IMG/VR virus record: IMGVR_UViG_3300030102_007788 | Span: 106,407-170,406 of that record | DNA from: a virus | Direction: 5' to 3' (one strand) | Length of the DNA stretch: 64,000 nucleotides | The notes under the pieces: generated by a model | The model's database searches: none | The model's input: only the letters and a program-made list of their open reading frames with translations | What the model was told of the DNA's origin: nothing | Program-made: the position numbers and the translations under genes | Shown: piece by piece, positions 1 through 23,768 of the stretch | Layout of the letters: each line of letters opens with the position of its first letter | How positions within the stretch are numbered: the stretch's first letter is position 1

Positions 1-29
1 AATAATTCTGCAACACTTGCCACCGCATA

Positions 30-107
30 ATGGAAAGTCTTTGGGTCGTGGCCGGTTTGGTTATAGGTTTTATACTATGGATTAACTCACAACAACCAAG
101 AGAATGA
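30..107 (+). CDS. Small membrane peptide (25 aa, MESLWVVAGLVIGFILWINSQQPRE)
   Basis: Read by hand, not in ORF track; TAATG overlap upstream, ATGA overlap with the 104 ORF, one hydrophobic helix. Confidence 0.5.
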   Translation: MESLWVVAGLVIGFILWINSQQPRE

Positions 108-535
108 AAAACAAAATCGAGTATGTAATGCAACAAGAGGGAGAGAAAAACGTGATTCTCGGAATCCGTGGTAACGATAGGGATTTAATCATTCGACATT
201 ACTGGGATTTTTGGAATCACGAAGCGACATCTTCAGAGGACATAATCTGGGCGAATGATGTAGTGAAACCCTATTTGGGATATTTTTGGACTACTAAAAC
301 AAAACTAAAAAACGCTTTGGTTAATATGACTTTTAGCTCTCTACTAAATTGTGAGAATTTAAGTCAGTTCAAGGGGTTGAAGGGTGGCGCGATGCCTTTC
401 GCTAGGGACTACGCCAAATTGAGATATGACGACATTAAACCCGTCAGATTTCTTATGACAAAAAACAAATATGATTTTTACAGCTTGGGAAAGATAACAG
501 CAGAAAATTTAACTGATTACGATGCAGCAAAATAA
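104..535 (+). CDS. Hypothetical protein
   Basis: 143-aa ORF coupled to the upstream small ORF. Confidence 0.7.
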   Translation: MKNKIEYVMQQEGEKNVILGIRGNDRDLIIRHYWDFWNHEATSSEDIIWANDVVKPYLGYFWTTKTKLKNALVNMTFSSLLNCENLSQFKGLKGGAMPFARDYAKLRYDDIKPVRFLMTKNKYDFYSLGKITAENLTDYDAAK

Positions 536-743
536 TAATACTGACACACACCAAACGGAGGAGGCTTTCGGAGTTCCTCAGGATCAATTAAGAGGATTAA
601 TATCTTCAGTAAATCAGGGATATAAAACTTTTTGTAAAAAGAAAAAAAACGCCTTGGGTAAAAAATGTGACCGAAGGCACATGATGCCAAATAGTGAGCG
701 TTTATATAATCAGAATTTTGCCAACCCAAATAAAACTGATTAA
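522..743 (+). CDS. Hypothetical protein
   Basis: 73-aa ORF overlapping the previous stop, fills the gap to the tRNA. Confidence 0.5.
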   Translation: MQQNNNTDTHQTEEAFGVPQDQLRGLISSVNQGYKTFCKKKKNALGKKCDRRHMMPNSERLYNQNFANPNKTD

Positions 744-764
744 ATAATTATTAAATAATAACGG

Positions 765-838
765 CGCGGGGTAGCCAAGTGGTAAGGCAGGTCTCTGCAA
801 AAGACCCATCGTCGGTTCGATCCCGATCCTCGCGTCCA
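765..838 (+). tRNA. tRNA-Cys (GCA)
   Basis: Acceptor CGCGGGG/CCTCGCG, D-arm with TGG, anticodon arm GGTCT-CTGCAAA-AGACC (GCA 797-799), T-arm GTCGG-TTCGATC-CCGAT, U73, encoded CCA. Confidence 0.93.
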
Positions 839-853
839 TCTTCAAAACATACG

Positions 854-931
854 TAAGTCATTGACTATCAACGACTTAGGCGCGCAGCGCCCCCCCTCCG
901 CCGGCGTAACCCATTGATAATCAGTCACTTA
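854..931 (-). repeat. 78-bp bipartite palindrome element, copy 1 (inverted relative to the others)
   Basis: TAAGTCATTGACTATCAACGACTTA + 28-nt spacer with C7 tract + TAACCCATTGATAATCAGTCACTTA. Confidence 0.95.
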
Positions 932-961
932 GGGCCTTTTTTCTGTCAAGCTTTTTTAATC

Positions 962-994
962 AAAAAAAATCCCCCTCCCTTGCGGGAGGGGGTT
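962..994 (-). terminator. Intrinsic terminator of the DUF932 gene
   Basis: Minus strand CCCCCTCCC-GCAA-GGGAGGGGG followed by a T run. Confidence 0.85.
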
Positions 995-1007
995 GATGGT
1001 GTTCCCC

Positions 1008-1943
1008 TTAGTTCGCGGCCAGATCGACCACGGTGGCAGTCTTCTGCTTTTCAGGAACCTTGGAGGTCAGCTTCTTAAAGAAGGCTGGCTCGCGGGTTGC
1101 CTTATGCAGATTGCCAAGCACGTTCCGGTTAGAGCGTGATGACAGCTCAAACCGATGTTCCTGAACCTCGTGGGTGAGGTGTTGCGTGACCGCGTTGTAC
1201 AGGTTGTACATATTGCGATCATGTGCCACGGCGTCATGGCCCGACTCGATCCGAAAAGACTTGTTAGTCCAGATCGGCGCGATGGAATCCTTGAGGGACT
1301 CAGACAGAACTTTTTTAATGACAAGATTGTCAAGAATCAGTTCGCCTTGCTCTTTGGACAGTTCAAACTCCCTCATTTTTTTGAAGACGTTCACCGACTC
1401 GCGGTATTTGTCCATGCACTCATTCAGCGAATCCGTGATTGAGTCGAAACTCAAACGGGTGCTGTGACGTTGGCTCAGGCTGGTATCGTTAACCATTGTG
1501 ACCATGCCATTGCTGCAGATCTTCCGAAGAAGACCAAGACTCCAACTCAAACCACAACTCCGGTCAAAAGAGTTGTTGAGGGTCAGGCGCATCGAAACGA
1601 TGTCACCGACGGCTACCTCCTCCTGCTGGCCGGGGAAGTCGTAAACCCCATAAAACCGCGCCCCATCACGGGTAGCTAGTTTTTTGGATTTGAATTCACC
1701 GAGGTTGCTACCACGAAGGGCTTCCTCGACCTTTTCAACAACGACTCCGTTGTTGACGATTTCGTACTGCTTAGTGCTAGTACCCAGACAGACTCCATTG
1801 TCTGTGCGAAAGTTCCCGAAGATGGGGGACTTTCCGACCACTACCGGTCTCTGCTTGTGATCATACAAGGGGCGTTGTTCCACCTCGTAATCATACTCGC
1901 GAGAGTGTAGCGTCTCTTTTGGTATGGATTGTTTTCTGCTCAT
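1008..1943 (-). CDS. DUF932 family phage/plasmid protein
   Basis: LG..S..Y.IV.N, GARF, GDIV..RL.L.NSFD, GLLRKICSNGM and LYNAVT.H motifs. Confidence 0.8.
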   Translation of the reverse strand: MSRKQSIPKETLHSREYDYEVEQRPLYDHKQRPVVVGKSPIFGNFRTDNGVCLGTSTKQYEIVNNGVVVEKVEEALRGSNLGEFKSKKLATRDGARFYGVYDFPGQQEEVAVGDIVSMRLTLNNSFDRSCGLSWSLGLLRKICSNGMVTMVNDTSLSQRHSTRLSFDSITDSLNECMDKYRESVNVFKKMREFELSKEQGELILDNLVIKKVLSESLKDSIAPIWTNKSFRIESGHDAVAHDRNMYNLYNAVTQHLTHEVQEHRFELSSRSNRNVLGNLHKATREPAFFKKLTSKVPEKQKTATVVDLAAN

Positions 1944-2075
1944 AACATTTTTAGTGCTTCCTCAGCACGCATTTATATTCTCATAATCTGGCCACCGGGT
2001 CAACCCTTTTTTTGTAATTATTTTTCTTTTTTTTATGCTTGACTTTTCTGAACGAAACTCCGACAAGGTCCATCC

Positions 2076-2153
2076 TAAGTCATTGGTAATCAAGGACTTA
2101 GGGCCGCGGCGGGGGGGCGCCGCCGGCGTAACCCACTGACTATCAATAACTTA
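2076..2153 (+). repeat. 78-bp bipartite palindrome element, copy 2
   Basis: TAAGTCATTGGTAATCAAGGACTTA + 28 nt with CGGCGGGGGGGCGCC + TAACCCACTGACTATCAATAACTTA. Confidence 0.95.
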
Positions 2154-2157
2154 CGAC

Positions 2158-2187
2158 AAAAAAAACCCACGGCGTTGGCCGTGGGTT
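2158..2187 (-). terminator. Intrinsic terminator
   Basis: AACCCACGG/CCGTGGGTT stem followed by a T tract on the minus strand. Confidence 0.8.
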
Positions 2188-2326
2188 AGTGTTATGAAGA
2201 GACGTATAGATGTCTCAGGAGAGTGAAGCCCTCGCCTTGGTAAAACCCGCTAGGGTAGAAAGTATAAAACCCCTAACGGTAAAACCCAAGGCAAGGGCGA
2301 CTTGAAGGAAAGGAGGAACCTTCAAG
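2188..2326 (-). ncRNA. Structured 3' UTR / candidate sRNA
   Basis: Three consecutive hairpins (2301-2326, 2228-2298, 2199-2216); two mismatches become G-U pairs on the minus strand. Confidence 0.45.
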
Positions 2327-2564
2327 CACCTTTAGGAAGTAACCAGCTCCCTAAAATTCTCAGAAAATTTGGCTTTGTGAGATAGCGGTCAACTTCTTTT
2401 TGAGTAGCCAACCGAAGGTGTTCGGCGGGAATCGCTTTCTGATTCTTTCCGTGTCTTTCGGTGACAACTCTTGATTTGCTGAAGTTGTTTGAGATTACGC
2501 GCTCAACTTTTTTTGTCTTTGTATTGTAGTACAACGAACCGTTTCTTATCTTGGTAAGTTTCAT
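2322..2564 (-). CDS. Hypothetical protein (80 aa, start MKLTK)
   Basis: Start reassigned to GTT-ATG 10 nt after TTGACA-17-CATACT. Confidence 0.75.
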   Translation of the reverse strand: MKLTKIRNGSLYYNTKTKKVERVISNNFSKSRVVTERHGKNQKAIPAEHLRLATQKEVDRYLTKPNFLRILGSWLLPKGA

Positions 2565-2666
2565 AACTGAGAAAAGTATGCCCCACACAGGGAGCATTGT
2601 CAACATGAAAAAAAACAAAAAAAGGGGTTGACCATTCACAAAAAGTATGATTAAATTATCTCCGTT
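2565..2666. promoter_or_regulatory. Divergent sigma70-type promoter pair
   Basis: Minus: TTGACA-17-CATACT-10-ATG; plus: TTGACC-17-TTAAAT-10-ATG. Confidence 0.75.
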
Positions 2667-3086
2667 ATGAGGAAGTACATTCCATGGGAAAAGGCAGAGA
2701 GCTTCGCTCCGGATCGCGTCAAGGTGTATCGCAACCTCACTTACAAGTGTTGGACTATATGCGATGCGAAGGATGGCAAGCTATATTGTCATGCGGATAG
2801 TGTTGACTTGCGTGATTGCAAGTTTCGGGTGCAGCCAGCAGGCCGCGCAAGAGTCTTGAAGGAGCGGCAGAAGAACGTCCACGCTTACGTGGTCGGAAAG
2901 TTCCACGATGTGAACTTCGAGCAGGCGCACTATATGCCTCGCGGCTACAAATTCGCGCAGGCTTTCTACAATCCTTATAGGGTTGAAACGTTTGTGAATT
3001 ATCACAATGGCACGCCGCTATATGAAGCGGCACGGGTTGTCTGCAAAAAGGCAGCAGACGGGGCAATGAACATTTATTACGCTTGA
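2667..3086 (+). CDS. Conserved phage hypothetical protein
   Basis: VYRNL...GRARVL.E.QKNVHAYV.G pattern, which I recognise as recurrent in phage proteins. Confidence 0.8.
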   Translation: MRKYIPWEKAESFAPDRVKVYRNLTYKCWTICDAKDGKLYCHADSVDLRDCKFRVQPAGRARVLKERQKNVHAYVVGKFHDVNFEQAHYMPRGYKFAQAFYNPYRVETFVNYHNGTPLYEAARVVCKKAADGAMNIYYA

Positions 3087-3133
3087 CAGCGTACCCTGTC
3101 TAATATATAGTTATCAGCAGTTAAGGGAACAAC

Positions 3134-3385
3134 ATGAATCAGAATCAAATGGATGATCATTGGCTGAGGCCGCGAACAAAAGCGGGAACTGAAGAGATGC
3201 GGAAAAGACTCAAAGCTATGAGGTTTATGCTGGAAGAAGCAGCGGCTCAAAGCCTAGAGGGCCGGATAGCTTCTAAGGTATTCAATGAATACTTTTCTTT
3301 CGAGTGGGAGGATGTACCATCCCTAGAAGAAAAAAAAGTAGATTTAACGAAAAAGGTGGTTGACACCGCTGCCAGTGTGCAGTAA
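3134..3385 (+). CDS. Hypothetical protein
   Basis: 83-aa ORF after TTGACA-17-TATAGT promoter and AAGGGA. Confidence 0.65.
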   Translation: MNQNQMDDHWLRPRTKAGTEEMRKRLKAMRFMLEEAAAQSLEGRIASKVFNEYFSFEWEDVPSLEEKKVDLTKKVVDTAASVQ

Positions 3386-3388
3386 GAT
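3360..3388 (+). promoter_or_regulatory. sigma70-type promoter for the non-coding region
   Basis: TTGACA-17-TAAGAT. Confidence 0.75.
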
Positions 3389-3394
3389 GAGTTT

Positions 3395-3843
3395 TCCCTT
3401 CGGGGACTTGTTAATATAACTTGTATATCTGTCTCCCTGTTAGTGGAGGTTAACTAACAAAGGTTATAGTAGTCGCACCTTCAATTGTATTATTGTTGTG
3501 TTTCATAGTAAAGGGAGTCAGACTGGGCTGACTTAAAACAACCCAGACGCTTTTTGAAAATTTGAGTTGACGGAGTTAAATACCCCTGCGAGTTTCCGTA
3601 CATTTACTCGTGCCCGTTTTACTGCTGGTGGTGCGGCAGCAACTCATTAATTTCCCTTCTCGACGGAGAAGGGCGGTGTGACGGAATTAATCTCTCCCAA
3701 GGAGATAACGTAGCACCTGCGGAAGTACCAACGGCTAAGTGGTTGAGGGAAAACGTGGGTGAGTCCGAAGTAGGTTGATAAGAAACTTTGTTTCTCGGGA
3801 ACCGAAAAGGTGTTGGTAAACAAATAATCCAACCACCATTTTT
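3395..3843 (+). ncRNA. Candidate large structured ncRNA (~450 nt)
   Basis: No credible ORF; own promoter; UUCG hairpin, H-type pseudoknot, multibranch domain, terminal hairpin and T run. Confidence 0.6.
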
Positions 3844-3854
3844 AATTTATAACA

Positions 3855-4070
3855 ATGAAAACTAAACACGCCCAAAGAAAGGCAGAGAAAAGAAAGGCAA
3901 CCCGCAGCCTTAAACTTGATGCGGTCAAGACTCGCGACATAATTGTCCGTGGCTTGAAGCAAGAAGTTAAAAGAGACTTTCGTCGCTGGAAAAAGAATCA
4001 TGCTGGCAAGGTTGAGATAATTTCTCATATTAAAAAATTGGAATCGCAGGTTAATCAAATATTCTCATAA
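3855..4070 (+). CDS. Small basic hypothetical protein
   Basis: 71-aa Lys/Arg-rich ORF. Confidence 0.6.
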   Translation: MKTKHAQRKAEKRKATRSLKLDAVKTRDIIVRGLKQEVKRDFRRWKKNHAGKVEIISHIKKLESQVNQIFS

Positions 4071-4249
4071 TGATTTGCTATGAGTGTGGCATCAAAGCCC
4101 AACGCAAAGAAACAAGATCAGCCAAGAAAGAAAGCCGCGATCCTCAAATAACTATTAGATGCGGCACATGGCGTAAAGGTTCATGCGATAAGTGTAAGAA
4201 AAAAAGAATTCATGTAACAGAAATTTCTGATTTTATTCTGATTAAATAA
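4070..4249 (+). CDS. Small Zn-finger protein (59 aa, MICYECGIK...CDKCKK)
   Basis: Read by hand; TAATG coupling to the previous gene; two CxxC pairs. Confidence 0.6.
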   Translation: MICYECGIKAQRKETRSAKKESRDPQITIRCGTWRKGSCDKCKKKRIHVTEISDFILIK

Positions 4250-4346
4250 GAAGTAAATAAGGATTAAATAAATAACAAATATTGTTAAATTCTTTTAATT
4301 TCTGAGAAAAAAATTATTTTTTTGAAAAAAATTCTTAAAAAGCACC

Positions 4347-4424
4347 TAAGTCACTGGTAATCAGTCACTTACGACTCCGGAGGGGGGGCGCCGCAGCCGT
4401 AAGTCATTGGTATTCAACGACTTA
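4347..4424 (+). repeat. 78-bp bipartite palindrome element, copy 3
   Basis: TAAGTCACTGGTAATCAGTCACTTA + 28 nt + TAAGTCATTGGTATTCAACGACTTA. Confidence 0.95.
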
Positions 4425-4448
4425 AGGTGTTTTTTTTGTCAAGGTTTT

Positions 4449-4673
4449 TTAGCCTTGATAGCGGTAGGCTCCGAGCAGGTCGCCGCCCCAACCGTGGGCA
4501 ACGGTGCAGCCGTCCTCTTCCAGAATCCAAGGCCACATATTGTCATCAGCCTGCTGGGCCAACTCCAAAGCCTTGTCCATTGCCGAATGGTCAACACCGG
4601 CTTCATTGGTGAATTCCTTGCTGCTCACCCTGTTGGTGTCCTCGTTCTTCCAGTACAATGTATATGTCCTCAT
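4449..4673 (-). CDS. Small acidic hypothetical protein
   Basis: 74 aa; own promoter TTGACT-16-TAAGAT-9-ATG. Confidence 0.75.
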   Translation of the reverse strand: MRTYTLYWKNEDTNRVSSKEFTNEAGVDHSAMDKALELAQQADDNMWPWILEEDGCTVAHGWGGDLLGAYRYQG

Positions 4674-4732
4674 AACGGAATTATCTTATCACAAGTTCAG
4701 AAAAAGTCAACAGGTTTTTTTAATTTTTTGAC

Positions 4733-4759
4733 AAAAAAAAGCCGCCCCGAAGGGCGGCC
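4733..4759 (-). terminator. Intrinsic terminator
   Basis: Minus strand GCCGCCC-TTCGG-GGGCGGC-type stem followed by T8. Confidence 0.8.
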
Positions 4760-4771
4760 TAGGTAACCCCG

Positions 4772-5254
4772 TTAGGAAAGTTCCTTGATTTGGGCCTTGA
4801 CGGCGATGAGTCGCGCCGTTTGTTTCGCGATCTCGTCGCGGGTCACGGAGCGGCGTTTGTCGTAATCCTGAAGCTCTTCGAGCTTCGCGGTGATGTCGCG
4901 CAGATCACTCTGCAACTCGTCGAGCTTTTGCTGCTTGACGTTGTCCACCGGCTTGGCCTTTTCGGCTTTGGCTTTCGCCTTTTCGGCTTTGGCTTTCGCC
5001 TTGGCCTCAAGCTCATGGGTTGGAAGCTCTCTGGCGATCCTCGCGAAGTACGGATTGGTTTTCGCGCTGGATTTGCCGTTGAGCTTGGCCTCGGTTTGGT
5101 GTCCGCGTTGTTGAGCGCACTTCACCGCAAAGCCCTTGATGGCGAGGTTAATCGCGTCAAGGTTAGTTGCTTTGCCCGACAGTAGGTCGCTGATTACGTT
5201 GCTCAGCATGATTGAGTCGTCAGCCCTGTTCATTCCGTTATTGGATTTTTTCAT
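4772..5254 (-). CDS. Coiled-coil protein with AKAKAEK repeat
   Basis: 160 aa, GAAAGGA SD-like site, GC-rich codons. Confidence 0.8.
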   Translation of the reverse strand: MKKSNNGMNRADDSIMLSNVISDLLSGKATNLDAINLAIKGFAVKCAQQRGHQTEAKLNGKSSAKTNPYFARIARELPTHELEAKAKAKAEKAKAKAEKAKPVDNVKQQKLDELQSDLRDITAKLEELQDYDKRRSVTRDEIAKQTARLIAVKAQIKELS

Positions 5255-5298
5255 TTAGTTTTGTCCTTTCGTTTTGTGTTAGCGTTACGCTAACGGGG

Positions 5299-6327
5299 TT
5301 AATGCCACCACCTACTATTCGCAGTCGAGCTATAACTCAAACTCTGCATGCTGCATCCGGTGGCTTTTATGTACGCTCTCTTGAGTTTAAGAAGATTTCT
5401 GTGATCTTCTATCATCTCTTGAGAAATTTCTTTACTACTTACTGAAAAACCTTCTTGTAAAAACTGGGCTTGTATTACAGATTTTACATAGGAGTCTTCA
5501 AGATTATCTCTGCATTTTTGACCTGCTGCTATACTCTGGTCTCGATACTTATTTTTTTGTTCTTTTGTTATCAACTCCTCCCGATAATGTTTATCAAAGC
5601 ATGATTCCTTGCAATATGCGCGGGCTTGACCGCCGGGAATTATAGGTTTCCCTTCCGCATCCCACCAACTGATAAAACTAAAATCTTTTTTGCAGCCAAT
5701 ACAGTTATGAGTAAACTCTCTTTTTGTTATATCTTTTGGAATGTATGGCCAGTTCTTAATTGAGCCATATTTTTTATTCCAAACACCTTGGAACAGTCTC
5801 CAGCCGTGTTGACATTTAGCGTTTTTGCATACTTTTTGCCTGTTGCCATACCTTCGTTCAAAGGTTCCTTGGCAGTATGGGCAAGTGGCCGTGGGGTAGT
5901 TTCCGTTTTTGTCGTGAGTCAATCTTGGATTACCGTTGATGTCCAGCTTTGGTTTTTGCTGTTTAGCAACTTGATTCCGTCTTGCCGCTTCTTTTCTGCT
6001 GCATTTTACAGAGCAAAATTTGAATCGGCTCTTTTCGCTTGGCTTTGATAATTTACCCCTAGTTGTCCACTTTTTCCTTGTTATCTGGTATGTTTTTTCG
6101 CAACCTTCAGCCTCGCATACGAATGTATTAGTGACAGTCTCTTTATATTTGTCGGACTTCAGAAAATTCTGGATTTTTTCGCGTGATTTTGCACCAATTC
6201 TTTCGGCGGCGATTCTTCGCGCCATTCCCCCATTATTGTCAAAGCAAGTTTTGTTTTCATCTTCTCTGCAATACTTCGCTCCTAGTTTTGGATTTATTTT
6301 TGAGCCGCAGGCTTTGCACTTCCTCAT
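5299..6327 (-). CDS. Multi Zn-finger (Cys-rich) basic protein
   Basis: Repeated CxxC...[KF/Y]CxxxC units; promoter TTGACT-17-TAGGAT-10-ATG. Confidence 0.8.
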   Translation of the reverse strand: MRKCKACGSKINPKLGAKYCREDENKTCFDNNGGMARRIAAERIGAKSREKIQNFLKSDKYKETVTNTFVCEAEGCEKTYQITRKKWTTRGKLSKPSEKSRFKFCSVKCSRKEAARRNQVAKQQKPKLDINGNPRLTHDKNGNYPTATCPYCQGTFERRYGNRQKVCKNAKCQHGWRLFQGVWNKKYGSIKNWPYIPKDITKREFTHNCIGCKKDFSFISWWDAEGKPIIPGGQARAYCKESCFDKHYREELITKEQKNKYRDQSIAAGQKCRDNLEDSYVKSVIQAQFLQEGFSVSSKEISQEMIEDHRNLLKLKRAYIKATGCSMQSLSYSSTANSRWWH

Positions 6328-6375
6328 AACAGAGATAATCCTAATTTATTCTGGCTGGAGAGTCAACAATTTATT

Positions 6376-7044
6376 TTAATTATTTTTAATTAAAGACCGA
6401 TACATTTTTTCACAATTAACGAATGCCATCATCAACATTTTACTTTGGGGCGAGGTTGCGTAAGGATGCGACCAAATGCACAACCAATCTTTTTCTGAAA
6501 ATTTTCTTTCAACATATGGCTCCAAATTGTGTGCATAGTTGCCGCCACCGTCTCGAATTTCCCAGTCCAAATCATGTGAGCCGCGTCCACTTGTTCTGAG
6601 GAAAGTCACGACAACAATTGAACCCTTTGCGCATTGTTCTGTTGATTCTGCCATGCGCGTTCTCGTTGCCGCTCCGCAGTAATCGCGCCAGATAAACATT
6701 GGATTATTATAATAATTAAAATCAACCACACCGTTTCGGGGCATTTCAATATTCTGATAAGTTAAAATGTCATCATTCTGGTCAATCATCCTGCTTACTT
6801 TTGGTGAGTCGAGATTACGCCAAAATATGTCTTCCTCTTTCTCATAACAAAACAGTTTTGTATTTTCTTGCCTTGCTGTTTTCAATATTTCTTTTTCTTG
6901 AGCCCAGACAACATATGGTAACGTAGCAATGGCTTTTGCTTTTTTAGAGTGATACCTTTCAAAGTTTACCCGCAACCCATCAACTAAGTGACGAGCCTTT
7001 ACCTTTTCATTCTTCTCACTTATCTCTGCCTTGTAGTTTGTCAT
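6376..7044 (-). CDS. Hypothetical protein, possible SAM-methyltransferase-like fold
   Basis: LFCYEKE and FIWRDYCG resemble motifs of phage MTase-like proteins; weak evidence. Confidence 0.5.
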   Translation of the reverse strand: MTNYKAEISEKNEKVKARHLVDGLRVNFERYHSKKAKAIATLPYVVWAQEKEILKTARQENTKLFCYEKEEDIFWRNLDSPKVSRMIDQNDDILTYQNIEMPRNGVVDFNYYNNPMFIWRDYCGAATRTRMAESTEQCAKGSIVVVTFLRTSGRGSHDLDWEIRDGGGNYAHNLEPYVERKFSEKDWLCIWSHPYATSPQSKMLMMAFVNCEKMYRSLIKNN

Positions 7045-7211
7045 TTTTGATTGGTTTTAAGCCGAGGGTGGTTAGTCCCCCGGCACAGGAATATATTGGC
7101 ATAAAAAAACTTTTAAGACAAGGGAAAAAAGTATTTTTTTTGCAATAAAATTATTTTTTTAAATGGGGAAGATGGCACAGAACCTGCACCGGAGAAGGGG
7201 TCAAAAAAACG

Positions 7212-7289
7212 TAAGTCATTGATTACCAGTGGTTTACGCCTGCGGCGGGGGGGCGCCGAGGCCGTAAGTCATTGATACTCAGTCACTTA
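7212..7289 (+). repeat. 78-bp bipartite palindrome element, copy 4
   Basis: TAAGTCATTGATTACCAGTGGTTTA + 28 nt + TAAGTCATTGATACTCAGTCACTTA. Confidence 0.95.
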
Positions 7290-7324
7290 CGACTTTTTTT
7301 ATTATTTTAATTTTTTTACTTGAC

Positions 7325-7362
7325 AAAAATGCCCCGCCGAGCTCATGAGGACTCGACGGGGC
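7325..7362 (-). terminator. Intrinsic terminator
   Basis: GCCCCGTCGAG...CTCGGCGGGGC stem followed by ATTTTT on the minus strand. Confidence 0.75.
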
Positions 7363-7450
7363 TGCGTTATGAGATTGGGGTCTTATTAAGTGCGACAGCT
7401 TCCCCCGTTGCCGTTGTCTAGGTCACTATCATGCCTCCGCACTTAAATTA

Positions 7451-7933
7451 TTATAATTTATAAAACACGTGTTGGCCGATTGTCTTGACGGGCTTTTGAC
7501 CTTTTGCCCAGTAAGGTAATTTTTTCATCCATGTGGCATGGTAGTGATTAGCGAAGCCAACATATTCGCGGCTTAAAGTTTTGACATTCTTTGCAACGGT
7601 GATGGCGTATTTTGCCTGTGGCACTTTCAACAAATGCTCAAGGTCTTTTAGCTTTTTTCCATTCCAACAACTAAATTGCCATTTTTTAAGGCATACCTCC
7701 GTGGGAGTTTGTTTTCTTTCAAATGCTCGTTGAGCAATGACAGCACCCACCGCGTACATTCCTTTTTCCCCTTCCCCTCTGGCTTCCGCCAATATAGTAA
7801 TTGCGACGACTTTTTCCTCACGGGTGAGGCTTTGGTTGCTGTGTGTGTGGGCGTAAGCATAAACAGAGTTAACAATTAAAAACAATTGAAAAACAACAGG
7901 TAATAAACAAACTGATATAATTAATTTTCTCAT
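7451..7933 (-). CDS. SleB-like cell wall hydrolase (Hydrolase_2) with N-terminal signal/anchor
   Basis: TILAEARGEG..GM.AV..VI..R, QFSCWN, ANHYHA, PYWA, IGQHVFYK; start reassigned to MRKLII. Confidence 0.88.
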   Translation of the reverse strand: MRKLIISVCLLPVVFQLFLIVNSVYAYAHTHSNQSLTREEKVVAITILAEARGEGEKGMYAVGAVIAQRAFERKQTPTEVCLKKWQFSCWNGKKLKDLEHLLKVPQAKYAITVAKNVKTLSREYVGFANHYHATWMKKLPYWAKGQKPVKTIGQHVFYKL

Positions 7934-7937
7934 TTTT

Positions 7938-8156
7938 TTATTCTCCATCCATTGAGGTTGGTTCACCGTGCAGGGCGTTAGTGATTTTGGCCCGTGATTG
8001 GGCTAGGTCGTCGGCAAGCCGTTTGCAAGTCTCGCGCATTTCCTCAACTGTTAAGTATGTGGATTTTGCGAGGTGTTCTAGGACTCCTTCAGTCTCGGCG
8101 ATTGTCACTTGGGCCGTGCTGATTTTTCTTTCGTTTGCGTAGTCAATCATTCTCAT
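7938..8156 (-). CDS. Small hypothetical protein
   Basis: Own promoter TTGACC-17-TATACT-10-ATG. Confidence 0.75.
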   Translation of the reverse strand: MRMIDYANERKISTAQVTIAETEGVLEHLAKSTYLTVEEMRETCKRLADDLAQSRAKITNALHGEPTSMDGE

Positions 8157-8245
8157 AACAGAAAAAAGTATAGTTTAGTTTTCGGGTAAGGTCAACAGTA
8201 AAATTGCATTTAATAGCAAAAAAATTATTGTGCAGGTTAGGACGG

Positions 8246-8512
8246 TCATTTGCTGAAATGGCCGTGATCTTCAAAACATTTGACGATCTCAACGACACGG
8301 TGAATGTCACCAGTCAACACCTTGTTTCCGTCAAGGTCTTTCTCTAGCACCACGCTGTTGTGGTATTGGTCAATCATCTCCTGCTCAGTTGTGCCAAGCG
8401 GGAAAGTGCAGCCTCCTACATTGTTAACACGGGCCATAAAGTGGTTGCCGGTGTAGGTTGGGTTCTTCTCCACTTTGAAGGTAACATTTAAGAATGGTTT
8501 CTTATCTCTCAT
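8246..8512 (-). CDS. Small hypothetical protein (88 aa, MRDKK)
   Basis: Start reassigned; promoter TTGACT-16-TATACT-10-ATG. Confidence 0.75.
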   Translation of the reverse strand: MRDKKPFLNVTFKVEKNPTYTGNHFMARVNNVGGCTFPLGTTEQEMIDQYHNSVVLEKDLDGNKVLTGDIHRVVEIVKCFEDHGHFSK

Positions 8513-8570
8513 AACGGGAATTAGTATATCAGAATTTTTTAAAAAGTCAACAACTATTTTCAACTTTTTT

Positions 8571-8768
8571 TCAACCGCCGATGGCGATCTCGGCGATTGC
8601 CTCACGCCATGCGTCACAAGCCGCATCTACGTCGAGCTTGTTCTCGTAGGCCCAGCGAATGACTTCGCCCTCGTAGTCCTTGTCGATGCCACCGAAGCCC
8701 AGCTCCCAGTAGTTGCAATGTTTCGTGACCTCGTTGAAGTAGTCTTTGTAATTGTTCATATCTCTCAT
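8571..8768 (-). CDS. Small acidic hypothetical protein
   Basis: Promoter TTGCAA-16-TATACT-10-ATG. Confidence 0.75.
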   Translation of the reverse strand: MRDMNNYKDYFNEVTKHCNYWELGFGGIDKDYEGEVIRWAYENKLDVDAACDAWREAIAEIAIGG

Positions 8769-8908
8769 AACGGAAAACAGTATATCACAGCCTCAGAAAA
8801 TTGCAAGCTTTTTTTCTCATATTTTTTTATTTTTATTAAAAAAACTTTTTTTAATAATTCGCACAGGTTGGCACGGAAACCCATCGGCAAAACACGCCTT
8901 AGAATACG

Positions 8909-8986
8909 TAAGTCACTGATAGTCAACGACTTACGCCGCCGGCGGGGGGGCGCCGCGCTCCTAAGTGACTGATACTCAAGGACTTA
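8909..8986 (+). repeat. 78-bp bipartite palindrome element, copy 5
   Basis: TAAGTCACTGATAGTCAACGACTTA + 28 nt + TAAGTGACTGATACTCAAGGACTTA. Confidence 0.95.
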
Positions 8987-9017
8987 CGACTTCAAACAGA
9001 GTTTTTTATTTAATCAC

Positions 9018-9041
9018 AAAAAAACCCCGCCTTGGCGGGGT
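9018..9041 (-). terminator. Intrinsic terminator
   Basis: ACCCCGCC-AA-GGCGGGGT followed by a T tract. Confidence 0.75.
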
Positions 9042-9060
9042 GACTTGGCACGGTTCCTGA

Positions 9061-9255
9061 TTAACCGGCGGCGATCAGCAGGTCAAGGGCAGCGTCCTCG
9101 GCGAGCTGCGCGTCAGACTGGCGGCCCATCTCATCCGCGACCATGTCCGCGTCCTGCGCGGCGATGTCCGCCTCGCGACGCTCATCACACCACGCGTTCA
9201 ACTCAAACTCCTCCTCGCAGGAGAGTTCCATGAATAACGATTTCATCATTCCCAT
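9061..9255 (-). CDS. Small, very acidic protein (64 aa)
   Basis: Start reassigned; promoter TTGACT-16-TACTCT-10-ATG. Confidence 0.72.
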   Translation of the reverse strand: MGMMKSLFMELSCEEEFELNAWCDERREADIAAQDADMVADEMGRQSDAQLAEDAALDLLIAAG

Positions 9256-9302
9256 AACAGAAAAAAGAGTAACAGAATCAGAAAAAAAGTCAACGAAAAA
9301 AA

Positions 9303-9518
9303 TCAGTTTTTTTCGGGATCCTCCCACACGATTTCCCAATCGTATGGGGAGTTGGACAAGTCACACGGAGCGACCTTGCACTTGACAGCGGACTTGGCCT
9401 CACGGGCACAAGTGATAGCAGCCTCAAGACCCTCATGGCTCGGAGCGAACCAGCGAACAAACTCAAGCCGACCAGTGGCGGACTTGACCTCAACGAAGTA
9501 TTTAGCATGAAACCTCAT
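9303..9518 (-). CDS. Small hypothetical protein
   Basis: Promoter TTGACT-16-TATTCT-10-ATG. Confidence 0.75.
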   Translation of the reverse strand: MRFHAKYFVEVKSATGRLEFVRWFAPSHEGLEAAITCAREAKSAVKCKVAPCDLSNSPYDWEIVWEDPEKN

Positions 9519-9565
9519 AACAGAAAAAAGAATATCAGAATCTCAGGAAAAGTCAACAATAAATC

Positions 9566-9700
9566 TCACTTTTTTTTTCTTTTTAATCCGCGCTTAAACT
9601 GCTCCCATGTGGGGCGTTCAGCTTCGGGGATTGCCTTCCATTCTTTCATCTGCGCTTGACGTAGCAGCGCACCACCAAAAGATTTAATATTATCACTCAT
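9566..9700 (-). CDS. Small protein (44 aa, MSDNIKSFGG...PTWEQFKRGLKRKKK)
   Basis: Read by hand; promoter TTGCAA-16-TAAAAT-10-ATG. Confidence 0.7.
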   Translation of the reverse strand: MSDNIKSFGGALLRQAQMKEWKAIPEAERPTWEQFKRGLKRKKK

Positions 9701-9749
9701 AACGAAAAAAATTTTATCAGAATTTCAGGAGATTGCAACCTTTTTTTAA

Positions 9750-9911
9750 TTATTTTCCCATGTTCAGCCAAGTGCTGAATGAACGTTGCATGCGGTTGCG
9801 TCGAGCTTGGCGATTGAGCTTGCGGTATCGTGCATTCCATTTGTCGGCTGTGCTGTCCAAAACTTTTTTGATTGTTTCTTCGCTGATGTTTAATCCTTTG
9901 TTATCTTTCAT
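9750..9911 (-). CDS. Small basic protein (53 aa, MKDNKGLN...)
   Basis: Read by hand; degenerate TTGCAA...GATACT promoter with ACT-ATG start. Confidence 0.6.
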   Translation of the reverse strand: MKDNKGLNISEETIKKVLDSTADKWNARYRKLNRQARRNRMQRSFSTWLNMGK

Positions 9912-9990
9912 AGTATTAAAGTATCATAATTTTTTTAGGTTTGCAAGAAAAACTTTTAATTATTTTTGGCATGGTTCCTGCCTAGGTGCG

Positions 9991-10068
9991 TAAGTCACTG
10001 ATAGTCAATGGGTTATGGGCGCGGGAGGGGGGCGCCGCCGGCGTAAGTCCTTGGTAGTCAACGACTTA
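9991..10068 (+). repeat. 78-bp bipartite palindrome element, copy 6
   Basis: TAAGTCACTGATAGTCAATGGGTTA + 28 nt + TAAGTCCTTGGTAGTCAACGACTTA. Confidence 0.95.
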
Positions 10069-10091
10069 CGTACTGGCGTTGGCGTTGGGGG

Positions 10092-10253
10092 TTACCCCCC
10101 GAAACAAGAGGGGCACGACTCAAAAAATTTGCACCAGCACCGGTCATCAGCCTCGGTCTCGGCCTCGTCGAAGCCGTTGGCGACTGTGACGTTGGCGACC
10201 CAAGCGTCAGACTGCATTTCGAAAACCTCTTCGCATGTAATGTTATCTCTCAT
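10092..10253 (-). CDS. Small acidic Cys-containing protein (53 aa, MRDNIT)
   Basis: Start reassigned; promoter TTGCAC-16-TATACT-10-ATG. Confidence 0.7.
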   Translation of the reverse strand: MRDNITCEEVFEMQSDAWVANVTVANGFDEAETEADDRCWCKFFESCPSCFGG

Positions 10254-10383
10254 AACGGGGATCAGTATACCACAACCGCAGAAAAGTGCAAGCATTATTT
10301 TCATTTTTTTGAAAAAAGTTTTTCTTATTTTTTTTGATTTAGGGCTTGCATTATTCGGCGATTCATGCGACACTATTTCTGTT

Positions 10384-10611
10384 ATGAGGAACTTCCTTAT
10401 TGAATACAGACCAGCCGTCCACGAGGGACGGGAGAACCTAAAGGGCTTGGTGTTCAACTACACCGTAGAAGTCGAGGAACAGTTTGCCAACCGGCAAAAC
10501 CCATCCTGCAAAGCCGACACCGTATGCGCTGGCATTACTGCCCGATGCACCGAGACCGGCGAGTGGAAGCGATTCCGCTGGGATTGCATCCTGAGCATGG
10601 TGGCCAAGTAG
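10384..10611 (+). CDS. Small protein, possible WYL-like SH3 fold (75 aa, MRNFLI)
   Basis: C-terminal GEWKRFRWDCI resembles the WYL RxFRxDRI motif; promoter TTGCAT-17-GACACT-9-ATG. Confidence 0.65.
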   Translation: MRNFLIEYRPAVHEGRENLKGLVFNYTVEVEEQFANRQNPSCKADTVCAGITARCTETGEWKRFRWDCILSMVAK

Positions 10612-10625
10612 GCCACCTTTTTTTT
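10599..10625 (+). terminator. Intrinsic terminator
   Basis: GGTGGCC-AAGTA-GGCCACC followed by T8. Confidence 0.75.
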
Positions 10626-10674
10626 ATCTTTTTACTTGCATTCAACAAAAACTTTTGATATTATTTTTCCAGTT

Positions 10675-10884
10675 ATGAGAGCTACAACAAGACAGCACCT
10701 GTGCGATGAGATTGCCGAGCTTGCCGGTGTGCGCGGCGGCCTTCAGTCATTAACCGCCACGACGTGGCAGGACGCCGATTACCTTCGGAACAAAATTAAC
10801 GAAGCGAATGAGCGTTTGACCGAAATCCAAAACAAGCTGCATGAGGCGACATGGAGCGAAGAAACCGAATGGCTAGACGAATGA
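10675..10884 (+). CDS. Small coiled-coil protein (MRATT)
   Basis: Start reassigned; promoter TTGCAT-17-TATTAT-10-ATG. Confidence 0.72.
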   Translation: MRATTRQHLCDEIAELAGVRGGLQSLTATTWQDADYLRNKINEANERLTEIQNKLHEATWSEETEWLDE

Positions 10885-11171
10885 GATTTCACGCCCTAAC
10901 TGATAATACAAACAATTATTTGCCAATGCATGCGGCGAATAATTTTCCCTATGGTGCGCCACCTGTATTAGAAAACAACGTCATGGAATATAACGAACCG
11001 ACTTGGGACGATGTCCCTGACAAGTTCACCAATTACGATGATGACGCGGCCAAGTGTTTTAGCTGCCGTGGATGGTTCCCGATAGAAGACTGCGTTATTA
11101 ATCATGACGAGGAACATAAAGCTGTGCCTGTCTGTGCCACCTGTGCGGATGGGCGTATAGTATGTATATAA
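10881..11171 (+). CDS. Small Zn-finger protein
   Basis: ATGA coupling; CFSC...CATC. Confidence 0.55.
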   Translation: MRFHALTDNTNNYLPMHAANNFPYGAPPVLENNVMEYNEPTWDDVPDKFTNYDDDAAKCFSCRGWFPIEDCVINHDEEHKAVPVCATCADGRIVCI

Positions 11172-11327
11172 ATTATATAACCACCCCCCCTTTTCTAAAA
11201 GGAGATATCTCAGATTTACGCGAGGGCGGCGGGGGGTGGGCAATTTCATTCTCCCCGATCCTTTTTATCTGACTTTTTCAAAAATACGCGAGACAGCGTA
11301 AGAATAGTTTTTTCAAAAATACTCAAC

Positions 11328-11738
11328 CTAAGTCTTCTTTTTAGTTCTCTTCTTTCGCTTAGGCTTTGGCCGCTTGATAGCTTTATCTTTTTTTGCTTTA
11401 GCTGTTAGGTACTTTTGCGGAATTAGAGCTTTTATAGCATCTTTGGAAGCTTTTTCGAAGTTATAACCGGGCCGCTTACTATAGAATTTATTTTTGTATT
11501 GATCTATTAAGGCATGTACGAGCATATGATGGTATTCGCACAGGGGTATAAGGTCTTCCATTGATTCCTTCCCGGGGCCTTTTCTATTTAAGTTGAGATA
11601 GGAGATGTGATGTATATGAATTTTGTCCTTGGCCCCGCAAGCGGCACATTCGCGGCCATGGTGAGCAAGAGCTTGAAGTCTCTTTCTTTGCCAAGCTTTG
11701 GATTTTAGATACTTTCTATGTTCTTCGGCTCTTCCCAT
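11328..11738 (-). CDS. HNH endonuclease
   Basis: CAACG..IHIHHISY...EDLIPLCEYHH. Confidence 0.85.
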   Translation of the reverse strand: MGRAEEHRKYLKSKAWQRKRLQALAHHGRECAACGAKDKIHIHHISYLNLNRKGPGKESMEDLIPLCEYHHMLVHALIDQYKNKFYSKRPGYNFEKASKDAIKALIPQKYLTAKAKKDKAIKRPKPKRKKRTKKKT

Positions 11739-12385
11739 TTATTGCTTTTACTACAATTATCTGTTGCCCATAGAGGCCTTAAGTTTAAATAGTTAAAACA
11801 CTCCCTCTGAACCTCTTCTTTTGTGAAGTCTTTATTCTTTATGAACCAATCTATAGGTTTATGATGATCTATATGCCATTCGCCATGGTTATCCCAAGAC
11901 ATACCTTCTGAGAAATAGGATTCGATGTGATACTGTACTTGTTCCCAGCTTTGGGCGCCTAACAGGTTAAGTGTCTTTATACTTTTAATAGCGTTAAACC
12001 CGTATTTTTTTGCCGCTCCAAAGGCTTTTGAGGTTCTATTTCTTAGTGTTGTAGCTATTTTATATGGAGGGTTTTCCATTCTTTTTTTATGCGACGCCTT
12101 TGCTTTTTCTTTACCCTTTTCACTTCTTAAATACTTGTACTGAGCATCCCGCCAAGCCTCTGGATTTTCTTTTGCCCATTCGTGGGCTTTATATTTTTTC
12201 CAACAGGACTTACATTCTCTTCTCCTTATATGGGGCTCCTTATTGCTTTTAGGGTAAAAGTCTTTAATATCTAATATTTCGTGACATGTTTTGCACTCCC
12301 TGCTAATTTCTCTACCATTGAGATAAATTGATTTGCCAAAACGCGATTGAACCACTTCTTTAACAGGGATGCCTACCGTAAGCAT
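11705..12385 (-). CDS. HNH-type homing endonuclease with N-terminal Zn ribbon
   Basis: GMSWDNHGEWHIDHHKP...NYLNLRPLWATDNCSK. Confidence 0.85.
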   Translation of the reverse strand: MLTVGIPVKEVVQSRFGKSIYLNGREISRECKTCHEILDIKDFYPKSNKEPHIRRRECKSCWKKYKAHEWAKENPEAWRDAQYKYLRSEKGKEKAKASHKKRMENPPYKIATTLRNRTSKAFGAAKKYGFNAIKSIKTLNLLGAQSWEQVQYHIESYFSEGMSWDNHGEWHIDHHKPIDWFIKNKDFTKEEVQRECFNYLNLRPLWATDNCSKSNKWEEPKNIESI

Positions 12386-13677: not shown

Positions 13678-13687
13678 GTGTAATATC
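13678..13687 (+). promoter_or_regulatory. GTGTAATA motif, representative probable late promoter
   Basis: The same motif precedes about 15 starts in zones 2-3 (see findings). Confidence 0.65.
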
Positions 13688-13694
13688 ATTTAAC

Positions 13695-16759: not shown

Positions 16760-16795
16760 TATTTGTAGCATAGATGTTTCTGTGTAATATTTTTT

Positions 16796-22625: not shown

Positions 22626-22696
22626 ACCTAAAAGGTAATACACTTTTTTTGAAAAAGGTTTAATTTTCATTAGTATATATAGTGTAATATTTTTTT

Positions 22697-23098
22697 ATGA
22701 AAGCGTATTGTCCAGACTGTGGCTCAGCCACAGAGTACTCGTTACAGAAGCCTAAATTTTGTGCTTCTTGCGGTAGCTCTTTTTCTATTGCGTCTTCCGC
22801 GCCAAGTAAAAAGATTTTTAAAACTGCCGCTAAAGTTGTTAAATCAAAACCTAAAGTGGAGTTTATGGAAGAGGAAGAGGAGTCTTTTAACATTCCTCAG
22901 ATAGATAAGCTGGATGTAAGCTTTACATCGTCTTCATTTGCTAAATCAAATAAGCTGGGTGACATTGTAGGGTCTAACGTCGATGGTGATCGAGAAGAGT
23001 TTACTAGGGAAAAAGATACTTCTTATTCTCTGGAAAGCTTCGAGCAGGACTTCATGAGGGATGCAGGGAGTTCACGTAGACCGGATGCCGAAAGCTAA
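22697..23098 (+). CDS. Zinc-ribbon protein
   Basis: YCPDCG...KPKFCASCG. Confidence 0.75.
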   Translation: MKAYCPDCGSATEYSLQKPKFCASCGSSFSIASSAPSKKIFKTAAKVVKSKPKVEFMEEEEESFNIPQIDKLDVSFTSSSFAKSNKLGDIVGSNVDGDREEFTREKDTSYSLESFEQDFMRDAGSSRRPDAES

Positions 23099-23768
23099 AA
23101 TAAAATTTGAAGATTATATTGAACAGATAGATGCAGAGATAAAAAAAAGAAGATCCAAGTGGAATTTGACAGCGCTTTCTTGGATGGACTTTGATGACGT
23201 ATCTCAAATCCTGAGGATTCATATATTTAAAAAGTGGCATTTGTATGATACAAAAAAGCCCCTCAATCCTTGGATCAATAGGATTATATCTAATCAGATA
23301 AAAAATCTTATACGTAACAATTACGGTAACTATTGTCGACCTTGCTTAAAATGTGCGGCAGCAGAGGCGGGGGACTTATGTTACATATACGGTAAACAAA
23401 GTGAGGCGTGCCCTTTGTTTGCAAATTGGTCTAGAACTAAAAAACAAGCTTACAACGCTAAACTTCCTGTATCAATAAACGATCACACTTACGAAATAAA
23501 TTCTACAGAGTATAGCGATATAGACATCTTAGGCGTTATGGATAGAATTAGCGCCAAGATGAAAGAAGTTTTAAAACCCGCCGAATGGAAAATTTACCAA
23601 GCTCTCTACATAGAGCATATGTCAGAGGAAGACGCTGCTACCTTGATGGGGTACAAGACTAATGAGAAAAATAGAGTTCCCGGGTATAAGCAAATCAAGA
23701 ACGTAAAAAAAGCTATAATTAAAAAAGTAAAACGGATGCTGGAAGATGGAGAGATAGAAATCTTATGA
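23085..23768 (+). CDS. Phage sigma-factor-like protein
   Basis: Region 2-like DFDDVSQILRIHIFKKWHLYD..KPL.PWINRII.NQIKN; region 4-like L...EWKIY...YIE.MSEEDAA..MG. Confidence 0.7.
   Translation: MPKAKIKFEDYIEQIDAEIKKRRSKWNLTALSWMDFDDVSQILRIHIFKKWHLYDTKKPLNPWINRIISNQIKNLIRNNYGNYCRPCLKCAAAEAGDLCYIYGKQSEACPLFANWSRTKKQAYNAKLPVSINDHTYEINSTEYSDIDILGVMDRISAKMKEVLKPAEWKIYQALYIEHMSEEDAATLMGYKTNEKNRVPGYKQIKNVKKAIIKKVKRMLEDGEIEIL

Follow-up and report, generated by a model that had tools for sequence, protein, structure and literature searches.

A candidate near-leaderless promoter and GTT-ATG head before shuffled small genes of an uncultured marine phage

The variable regions of phage genomes are sites where genes for host takeover and anti-defence turn over, and how the newcomers get expressed is poorly understood. 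The virus record IMGVR_UViG_3300030102_007788, a 170,406-bp marine metagenome entry of IMG/VR, raises this question in concrete form. Within its final 64 kb, hereafter the window, thirteen genes each begin directly behind the same unit, a promoter that runs into GTT-ATG. We call this unit the head. It is probably a self-contained, near-leaderless GUU-AUG expression unit that is read by the sigma70 of the host and shuffled as a cassette. Positions are those of the window unless marked as genome positions, which refer to the entire record.

Architecture and distribution of the head

The 60 nucleotides (nt) upstream of each of the thirteen starts named in the original prediction were inspected. 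All 13 fitted the proposed layout, that is, TTGACN or TTGCAN, a spacer of 16-17 nt, a -10 hexamer, 9-10 nt, and ATG. One alternative reading gives start 2667 an 18-nt spacer. The distance from the -10 hexamer to ATG is 10 nt, with 9 nt at 4673 and 10384 only, and the -10 consensus is TATACT. By reading, about 8 of the 13 heads carry a TG one base 5' of the hexamer (extended -10), and an automated promoter scan flagged this feature in five of the ten heads it lists. The A/T content of the 20 nt upstream amounts to 0.75-0.95. As had been claimed, GTT directly precedes ATG in 13/13 heads, and the T-rich 10 nt before ATG contain no Shine-Dalgarno (SD) word; a 3-nt leader would be too short for such a word to fit. 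Codon 2 is AGG or AGA in five heads each and AAA, GGA, or AGT in one each, and the N-termini read MR ten times and MK, MG, and MS once each, in keeping with the predicted prevalence of MR and MS. The heads are as follows (amino acids, aa; guanine-plus-cytosine content, GC).

2556..2603 (-): head of gene 2322-2564 (80 aa); TTGACA-17-CATACT-10-ATG with GTT; folding z score -2.7
2628..2675 (+): head of gene 2667-3086 (139 aa, Phage_L5_gp82 family); divergent from the 2564 head
4665..4710 (-): head of gene 4449-4673 (74 aa); TTGACT-16-TGa-TAAGAT-9-ATG; terminator 4739-4760 directly upstream
6319..6366 (-): head of gene 5299-6327 (342 aa); then the SD-led gene 4772-5254 and terminator 4739-4760
8148..8195 (-): head of gene 7938-8156 (72 aa); then the cell-wall hydrolase gene 7451-7933 with an SD (GGAG) and terminator 7331-7362
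8504..8550 (-): head of gene 8246-8512 (88 aa, MRD); 12-member protein cluster
8760..8806 (-): head of gene 8571-8768 (65 aa, MRDM)
9247..9293 (-): head of gene 9061-9255 (64 aa, GC 0.61); terminator 9024-9041 after the gene
9510..9556 (-): head of gene 9303-9518 (71 aa); best matrix score
9692..9738 (-): head of gene 9566-9700 (44 aa, MSD); cassette missing in a relative (joint 9539->9740)
9903..9946 (-): variant head of gene 9750-9911 (53 aa), without GTT
10245..10291 (-): head of gene 10092-10253 (53 aa, MRD)
10346..10392 (+): head of gene 10384-10611 (75 aa); TTGCAT-17-TGc-GACACT-9-ATG
10636..10683 (+): head of gene 10675-10884 (69 aa); terminator 10599-10617 directly upstream

The pattern TANNNT-N7-GTTATG occurs ten times in the window, nine times at the listed starts, compared to a mean of 0.92 and a maximum of 3 in dinucleotide shuffles. 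The start at 9911, which had been set apart as a deviating variant, indeed reads TTGCAA-17-TACTTT-6 nt-ATG with ACT in place of GTT, and its geometry is truly leaderless. Six starts of the open reading frame (ORF) track were corrected by the heads, as predicted: the longest ORFs 2322-2639, 8246-8626, and 9061-9339 to starts 2564, 8512, and 9255, and the ORFs 10092-10457, 10015-10611, and 10636-10884 to starts 10253, 10384, and 10675. Homologues that start with MRD at the head ATG back these corrections.

When a matrix built from the 13 sites was applied to all ATGs of the 170-kb genome, those sites ranked 1-12 and 15, and the next matches were further heads at genome 92725, 99644, 103634, and 105681. 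Regular-expression and matrix scans together revealed ~21 heads genome-wide, 20 of them within genome 82.5-117.1 kb. Those upstream of the window are all on the plus strand (genome 82526 (CTT), 92725, 99644, 103304 (GAT), 103634, 105382, and 105681), and a single outlier with CTT before ATG lies at genome 55504. GTT is not invariant genome-wide, the same position being occupied by CTT twice and by GAT and GAC once each. Promoter-like sites of the genome that were defined blind to the downstream sequence had their first ATG 9-11 nt from the -10 in 20 of 31 cases. By crude gene calls, GTT precedes the first ATG in 11 of 56 genes at 82-117.5 kb and in 2 of 117 genes elsewhere. The latter count indicates that GTT-ATG belongs to the promoter class and not to starts generally. 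The heads are confined to the variable, early-type region.

The phage belongs to an abundant, uncultured group. Its record has a GC of 39% and is rated complete by CheckV; end repeats were not found in it. At the DNA level, the best matches are marine metagenome runs from several studies, and no match was obtained among 50,697 cultured phage records. The large terminase is at most 25% identical to that of any cultured phage, the best being Bacillus and Clostridioides phages. A terminase relative is encoded by 159 IMG/VR contigs, and the 80 listed are all at least 81% identical; a search of a large protein collection returned more than 1,700 related proteins. Scanning IMG/VR with TTGAC-N18-TANNNT-N7-GTTATGAG yielded 94 stretches, of which 44 have at least two heads and 29 at least three. 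One 15-kb stretch (L067) holds 13 heads, and the 144-kb contig from which it comes encodes an 85% identical terminase. Across the family, the head consensus is TTGACtttt...cTGtGaTATACTgttttctGTTATGAGAGAT, and an extended -10 with the consensus cTGtGaTATACT is frequent. Family heads front 211 distinct products (median 80 aa) that form ~30 homology clusters; 107 of these start with MR, including 54 with MRD and 20 with MRE. The IMG/VR search gave no relatives of the 342-aa protein (5299-6327), weak ApoLp-III and ncS025 matches were set aside as chance, and the phage encodes no tyrosine integrase. A tRNA-Arg(UCU) gene in the early region (genome 86162-86237; L005 10162-10237) decodes AGA, the commonest codon 2 of head-fronted genes. 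A tRNA-Cys gene is located at window 765-838.

The constant part of the head reaches into the gene. Where codon 2 encodes arginine, it is AGR in 105 of 105 cases (22 of 22 in sites outside the search pattern), compared to an AGR share of 34% among the arginine codons of the same gene bodies. At codon 3, GAT was counted 53 times versus 7 for GAC, and GAA 26 times versus 2 for GAG, with ratios near 50:50 in the bodies. The GC of the heads is 0.33, and that of the gene bodies has a median of 0.47 and reaches 0.61 in the window. After MRD or MRE, residue 4 is methionine in 17 of 72 products, as against 2% methionine in the bodies. Members of one protein family differ in how far the conserved core lies from the MRD start, and at two loci a second GTTATGAG follows the head in frame (MRERVMRD in L040). 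Codon bias, the GC contrast, additional methionine, variable core distance, and tandem heads together show that ATG-AGR-GAW belongs to the head and not to the captured gene. By these codon statistics, the head donates the start codon and the first residues (MRD or MRE) to the ORF behind it, with the captured gene's own ATG sometimes kept as residue 4.

Spacer similarity beyond promoter needs, which had been read as a sign of copying, was confirmed for the window. The mean pairwise spacer identity of the 13 heads is 0.42 versus 0.275 for shuffled sequences, and the best pairs reach 0.82 and 0.76. CTGA is present in 6 of the 13 spacers, and the words TTTT-CTGA...TCTGA mark the subgroup 4673, 8512, 8768, 9255, 9518, 9700, and 10253. 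Across the family, spacer identity rises from 0.40 through 0.51 to 0.74 at protein identities of 30-60%, 60-80%, and >80%, respectively. Spacers of non-homologous heads are 0.30 identical versus 0.26 when shuffled, and 19 of 4,933 such pairs are at least 70% identical, ~15 times the shuffled rate. Since the spacers of non-homologous heads are near random, the constant bases are under selection and not merely copied. Recent copying accounts for no more than local subgroups, among them the CTGA set of the window, and the original suggestion holds for these; family-wide, the heads mostly diverge with their genes.

Cassettes, terminators, and gene shuffling

Strong terminators are present only at 9024-9041, 7331-7362, 4739-4760, 2164-2187 (-), and 10599-10617 (+), and most cassettes of the array have no terminator between them. 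From this arrangement, the units are predicted to form nested transcripts that share one terminator.

9024..9041 (-): intrinsic terminator; ends the nested units from 10253, 9911, 9700, 9518, and 9255
7331..7362 (-): intrinsic terminator; ends the units from 8768, 8512, and 8156
4739..4760 (-): intrinsic terminator; ends the 6327 unit and lies 29 nt upstream of the -35 box of the 4673 head

To follow the cassettes among relatives, window 1-12000 was compared by BLAST with G152, a 144-kb relative whose terminase is 85% identical. The flanks 95-4236 and 10881-11323 are conserved in the same order. Between them, G152 carries the 10253 gene; the 9255 gene with its terminator and a 78-bp element; the hydrolase gene; the 4673 gene; the 10384 gene; and the 8512 gene, which is inverted. 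The genes 5299-7044 are missing. The cassettes of G152 are permuted, with one inverted and two absent. Homology blocks extend from just upstream of the -35 box to the stop codon (e.g., 4445-4710), and contigs from marine runs have joints at heads (4680->9560, 4680->8753, 9539->9740, and 9556->10113). In these comparisons, a head and its ORF behave as one cassette that is permuted, inverted, gained, and lost among relatives.

Between the cassette arrays lie 78-bp elements, each consisting of a palindrome, a G-C core, and a second palindrome.

854-931: 78-bp element
4340-4430: 78-bp element
7205-7300: 78-bp element
8908-8995: 78-bp element
9988-10075: 78-bp element

Contigs of relatives contain element-to-element joints (4373->7255 and 8936->10035), and in the Verrucomicrobiota contig L183 one half of such an element lies next to a tRNA gene. 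The element may thus serve for recombination or attachment, and some of its parts resemble outward-facing terminators. A sigma54-like TGGCATGGTTCCTGC adjoins one copy at window ~9972-9986 (+).

Transcription start, translation, and competing explanations

Where would the message of a head begin? The G of GTT is the eighth base after the -10 hexamer, the normal distance being 7-8 nt, and Y-G-T occupies this position in 11 of 13 heads. Assays in E. coli found the start site to coincide, in 79% of cases, with a Y-R-Y element whose centre lies 8 bp past the -10 (PMC12641261). Family loci were tested with promoters defined blind to the downstream sequence and with matches to the search pattern removed. 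The first ATG then peaked 9-10 nt past the -10 (67 of 234 sites), GTT was present in 53 of the 73 sites with ATG 9-11 nt downstream, and 39 of 41 sites with 10-nt spacing had the G. The family also possesses a leadered promoter class with the conserved transcript start GTGAGTGAGAGAA and ATG 1-10 nt later (e.g., L047 2417, 3561, and 5043; L183 ~1470 and 650 (-)). Its leader starts at the same eighth base in 16 of 17 cases, and UGAGAGA is common to this class and the near-leaderless heads. Based on promoter geometry, the Y-G-T element, and the GTGAGTGAGAGAA class, we infer that transcription starts at the G of GTT and leaves a 3-nt leader.

The proposed head therefore comprises, in order, an A/T-rich tract, a -35 box (TTGACW or TTGCAN), a 16-17 nt spacer, an often TGn-extended -10 (TATACT), a 7-nt pyrimidine-rich discriminator, G-T-T, ATG, and the constrained codons AGR and GAW. 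A sigma70-type holoenzyme, most likely that of the host, would initiate at the G, and the mRNA would begin with 5'-GUUAUGAGR. Ribosome and initiator tRNA would then engage the AUG at the extreme 5' end by a leaderless-type route, without an SD. In leaderless initiation, a 70S ribosome is described to bind an AUG that lies at the 5' end or close to it (PMC9031893). In Deinococcus deserti, messages with 5' untranslated regions (UTRs) below 6 nt, including 1-3 nt, are efficiently translated, and N-terminal peptides have been detected (PMC4007540). A leaderless class with 6 nt between -10 and ATG comprises 21 sites in the family and the genome itself, including 9911, which argues that the host copes with a 5'-terminal AUG. 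An internal AUG of the array that lacks its own 5' end would carry no initiation signal. Such a need for a 5' end would explain why each small gene has a private promoter, and would account for the SDs of head-less genes inside the arrays, GGAG at 7933 and AAGGA at 5254. Gene 3134 is preceded by a promoter of its own and by a 22-nt leader, with AAGGGA.

The role of GUU itself may go further. It could serve as a one-codon leader that fills the ribosomal E site and, together with AGR-GAW, forms a portable, largely host-independent initiation signal, in which U-1/U-2 could stack or pair with A37/A38 of the initiator tRNA. We regard this extension as doubtful. Were it true, any ORF could be expressed by in-frame fusion, phage messages may be favoured during takeover, and the phage tRNA-Arg(UCU) would serve an obligatory AGA codon 2.

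Several observations weigh against a host-read, near-leaderless head. The start of gene 1008-1943 (DUF932; window 1941-1985 (-)) reads GTTATGAGC, and its promoter, TTGACC-17-GAATAT, lies 28 nt further upstream. The 28-nt leader contains a hairpin, and GTTATGAG stands behind it, so that the head context may be kept, and may act, away from the 5' end. Predicted 5' ends of head messages are no less structured than controls (unpaired probability of the first 15 nt 0.535 versus 0.525, p 0.89). RNA-library contigs (runs X20 and X19) that are 90-99% identical to the window and cover parts of it cross some of the heads, which fits read-through transcripts or DNA carry-over. Bases added before a 5'-terminal AUG reportedly reduce leaderless translation in E. 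coli, so a fixed 3-nt leader is not obviously optimal. Finally, two terminase relatives are labelled Zunongwangia profunda and Flavobacteriales metagenome-assembled genome (MAG) in NCBI, labels that are not traceable to a genome; the main sigma factor of Bacteroidota is not expected to read TTGACA/TATAAT promoters.

The last point leads to the possibility that the heads are read by a phage-encoded sigma-like protein and front middle genes in a host with different promoters, e.g., a flavobacterium. The phage does encode two divergent sigma-like proteins (window 23061-23768 (+) and genome 54857-55456 (+)), with matches to Sigma70_r2 only at 26 and 22 bits. Only ~28% of the other genes have an SD-like word, and A-rich starts are common; low SD use and A-rich starts resemble Bacteroidota. 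Together with the NCBI labels, untraceable as they are, these features speak for a phage-encoded reader. However, the boxes of the heads match the classical -35/17/TGn/-10 consensus with A/T-rich upstream tracts, and no convincing intergenic Bacteroidota-type TTTG/TAnnTTTG promoters were found in the phage. The sigma genes themselves are differently placed. One lies in an operon behind a GTGTAATAT box and the other downstream of a TTGACT-type promoter and a structured RNA. At genome 53495-53800 (+), a non-coding stretch of ~290 nt, GC-rich and apparently structured, lies behind a TTGACT promoter whose spacer contains CCTG and ahead of the operon with one sigma-like gene. At least 17 structural or late-region genes have the GTGTAATAT box 5-20 nt ahead of their ATG, often with little or no leader (e.g., 12360-12385 (-), 13680-13694 (+), 16780-16795 (+), and 22670-22696 (both strands)). 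The box probably represents a second class of promoters, one that lacks a -35 and may be read by a phage sigma factor. From this arrangement we infer, as the simplest temporal model, that the host RNA polymerase would read the TTGACW heads early and that phage sigma factors would read the later class.

Host evidence also bears on the reader of the heads. L183, a MAG contig with a GC of 0.60, contains a glcD-like gene 82-92% identical to proteins named as Verrucomicrobiota or Verrucomicrobiales. Directly behind a tRNA gene of this contig come one half of a 78-bp-type element, a pair of GTTATGAGAG heads, and a pair of GTGAGTGAGAGAA promoters, and the ORFs of these heads and promoters are 72-81% identical to ORFs of family contigs. 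A head-bearing element is thus physically joined to Verrucomicrobiota DNA, which argues against a phage sigma factor as the reader. The Verrucomicrobiota MAG that includes L183 showed no terminase relative and no heads beyond that element, and none turned up in 150 further genomes of the order. Being limited to one element in this lineage, the motif is not the generic start context there; a generic start context of the host is what the original prediction had named as a refutation. G152 is classed as a provirus by IMG/VR. The tRNA-Arg(UCU) and the GC-rich cassettes would suggest a GC-rich host. A full-length match to the manA RNA motif (RF01745; 45.5 bits, below the gathering threshold of 55.2; E 3e-9) points elsewhere than to a Verrucomicrobiota host. 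It lies at window 3656-3843 (+) inside a ~450-nt non-coding stretch, behind a promoter at 3360-3388 and upstream of ORFs 3855-4070 and 4070-4249, and is otherwise known from cyanophages and marine metagenomes (PMC2864571). A terminase pattern search of genome contigs gave no relative. Scanning bacterial genomes with the head pattern yielded 36 stretches, 34 of them with a single match and mostly from Clostridia; except for L183, these were rejected as unrelated to the family. Taken together, a phage-encoded reader seems unlikely, and it would alter only what reads the promoter and leave the near-leaderless layout unaffected.

Transcription could also start at the A of ATG, 11 bases past the -10, which would make the heads truly leaderless and GTT the end of the discriminator. 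T-A-T around this A is a Y-R-Y start element too, and the 6-nt class shows that truly leaderless sites exist and that the host probably accepts a 5'-AUG. Yet a start 11 nt past the -10 is outside the usual 6-10 nt (PMC12641261), and the position-8 G is the most conserved base in the sites outside the search pattern. The GTGAGTGAGAGAA class starts exactly at the position-8 base. Moreover, a start at A would predict 6-nt spacing, and the 10-nt spacing dominates five to one. We consider a start at the A quite unlikely.

The conservation of codons 2 and 3, past the needs of promoter and AUG, could alternatively mean that GUUAUGAGAGAU is kept chiefly because it is targeted by a phage post-transcriptional regulator, one that silences early messages together in the manner of T4 RegA/RegB. 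Candidates for this role would be an RNA-binding repressor, a nuclease, or an antisense RNA. The SELEX (systematic evolution of ligands by exponential enrichment) consensus of T4 RegA reportedly contains GUUAUG, and UGAGAGA recurs in the leadered class. In addition, the manA-like RNA holds AUCUCUC...AUAAC, complementary to GUUAUGAGAGAU with an 8-nt split. These words lie inside a predicted hairpin and were spotted after the fact, the phage encodes no member of the RegA family (PF01818), and the start element alone explains the initial G-T. Such a regulator target is therefore improbable as the main reason for the conservation.

Very improbable is the view that the heads are unused singly and that long polycistronic RNAs are translated from SD-less internal AUGs (e.g., through S1 or an A/U-rich context) with GTT as a Kozak-like word: the scarcity of terminators between cassettes, the RNA-library contigs that span heads, and the GTTATGAG of gene 1943 behind its 28-nt leader fit it, but some 21 sites, and dozens of contigs from relatives, keep -35, -10, and ATG in register across spacers that are near random, which would be difficult to account for with idle boxes; internal and late genes lack GTT, and promoter-less array genes have GGAG or AAGGA.

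If the head is indeed a near-leaderless unit read by the host sigma70, one compact unit appears to give promoter, start site, start codon, and first residues, and an incoming ORF needs only an in-frame junction. The hundreds of heads with near-random spacers constitute a natural replicated test set for the translatability of messages with a 3-nt leader. For annotation, the head rule fixes six starts in the window alone, and it could guide the design of compact expression units.

Comparison with known systems

The original prediction had likened the heads to the promoter-early stem-loop (PeSL) cassettes of T4-type phages, which consist of a strong sigma70-like early promoter, an A/T-rich upstream tract, a stem-loop (often polyG...polyC) in or beside the promoter that serves as terminator or attenuator, and an SD with the start codon at the 3' side (Arbiol et al., 2010, PMC2839356; Comeau et al., 2014, PMC4122927). 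Both systems share repeated strong sigma70-like promoters with an A/T-rich upstream tract, which stand in a variable region directly before small ORFan genes and end at the start codon. Shared are also the insertion, deletion, replacement, and reordering of genes between close relatives, seen here in G152 and the marine-run contigs. The products of the heads (median 80 aa) mostly belong to no Pfam family and come, like those of PeSLs, from ORFans of a hyperplastic region. In contrast to PeSLs, the heads have no SD, place ATG 9-10 nt after the -10, and include two codons. Only about 3 of 21 heads fold better than shuffles (genome 55504, z -3.0; genome 103634, z -5.1; window 2564, z -2.7), the G/C arms of the stem-loops embracing the -35 box or sitting between the boxes; folding of the other 18 was not clearly better than that of shuffles. 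Separate terminators adjoin few other heads, and the terminator 4739-4760 with the 4673 head forms a PeSL-like terminator-promoter pair. Furthermore, the phage is not T4-type, and its cassette shuffling is known from sequence comparison only. The analogy thus holds for promoter, location, and shuffling and fails for SD and stem-loop; the unit works like a PeSL but is outside that family.

Halovirus HF2 has promoter-bearing intergenic repeats whose sequence and position are conserved across the virus genus (PMC8707807). A repeated intergenic unit that carries a promoter is common to both, whereas the HF2 promoter is of the archaeal type, and start-codon donation or gene shuffling at the repeats is not reported. 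The cI message made from PRM of phage lambda is a leaderless phage message with a 5'-terminal AUG and no ribosome-binding site. Messages of the cI type concern single regulatory genes, whereas the head is a repeated standard unit of ~21 genes per genome and hundreds across the family.

Deinococcus-Thermus and Actinobacteria possess leaderless genes whose -10 is adjacent to the ORF (PMC12340547, PMC4007540, PMC3160421). There, as in the heads, the promoter abuts the start codon and no SD is present; the 5' UTRs of 0-5 nt are translated efficiently, as would be those of the heads. The bacterial genes differ in that transcription usually starts on the initial base of the start codon, with the -10 lying ~6-7 nt upstream, and in that the -35 is often weak. 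This strict 6-7 nt spacing is not shared by the heads (9-10 nt), and only 9911 has 6 nt. The heads would instead combine a constant 3-nt GUU leader with a full -35 and an extended -10, and they are a trait of a class of phage genes and not of a host genome. On the side of translation, the head is closest to these leaderless genes of Deinococcus-Thermus and Actinobacteria.

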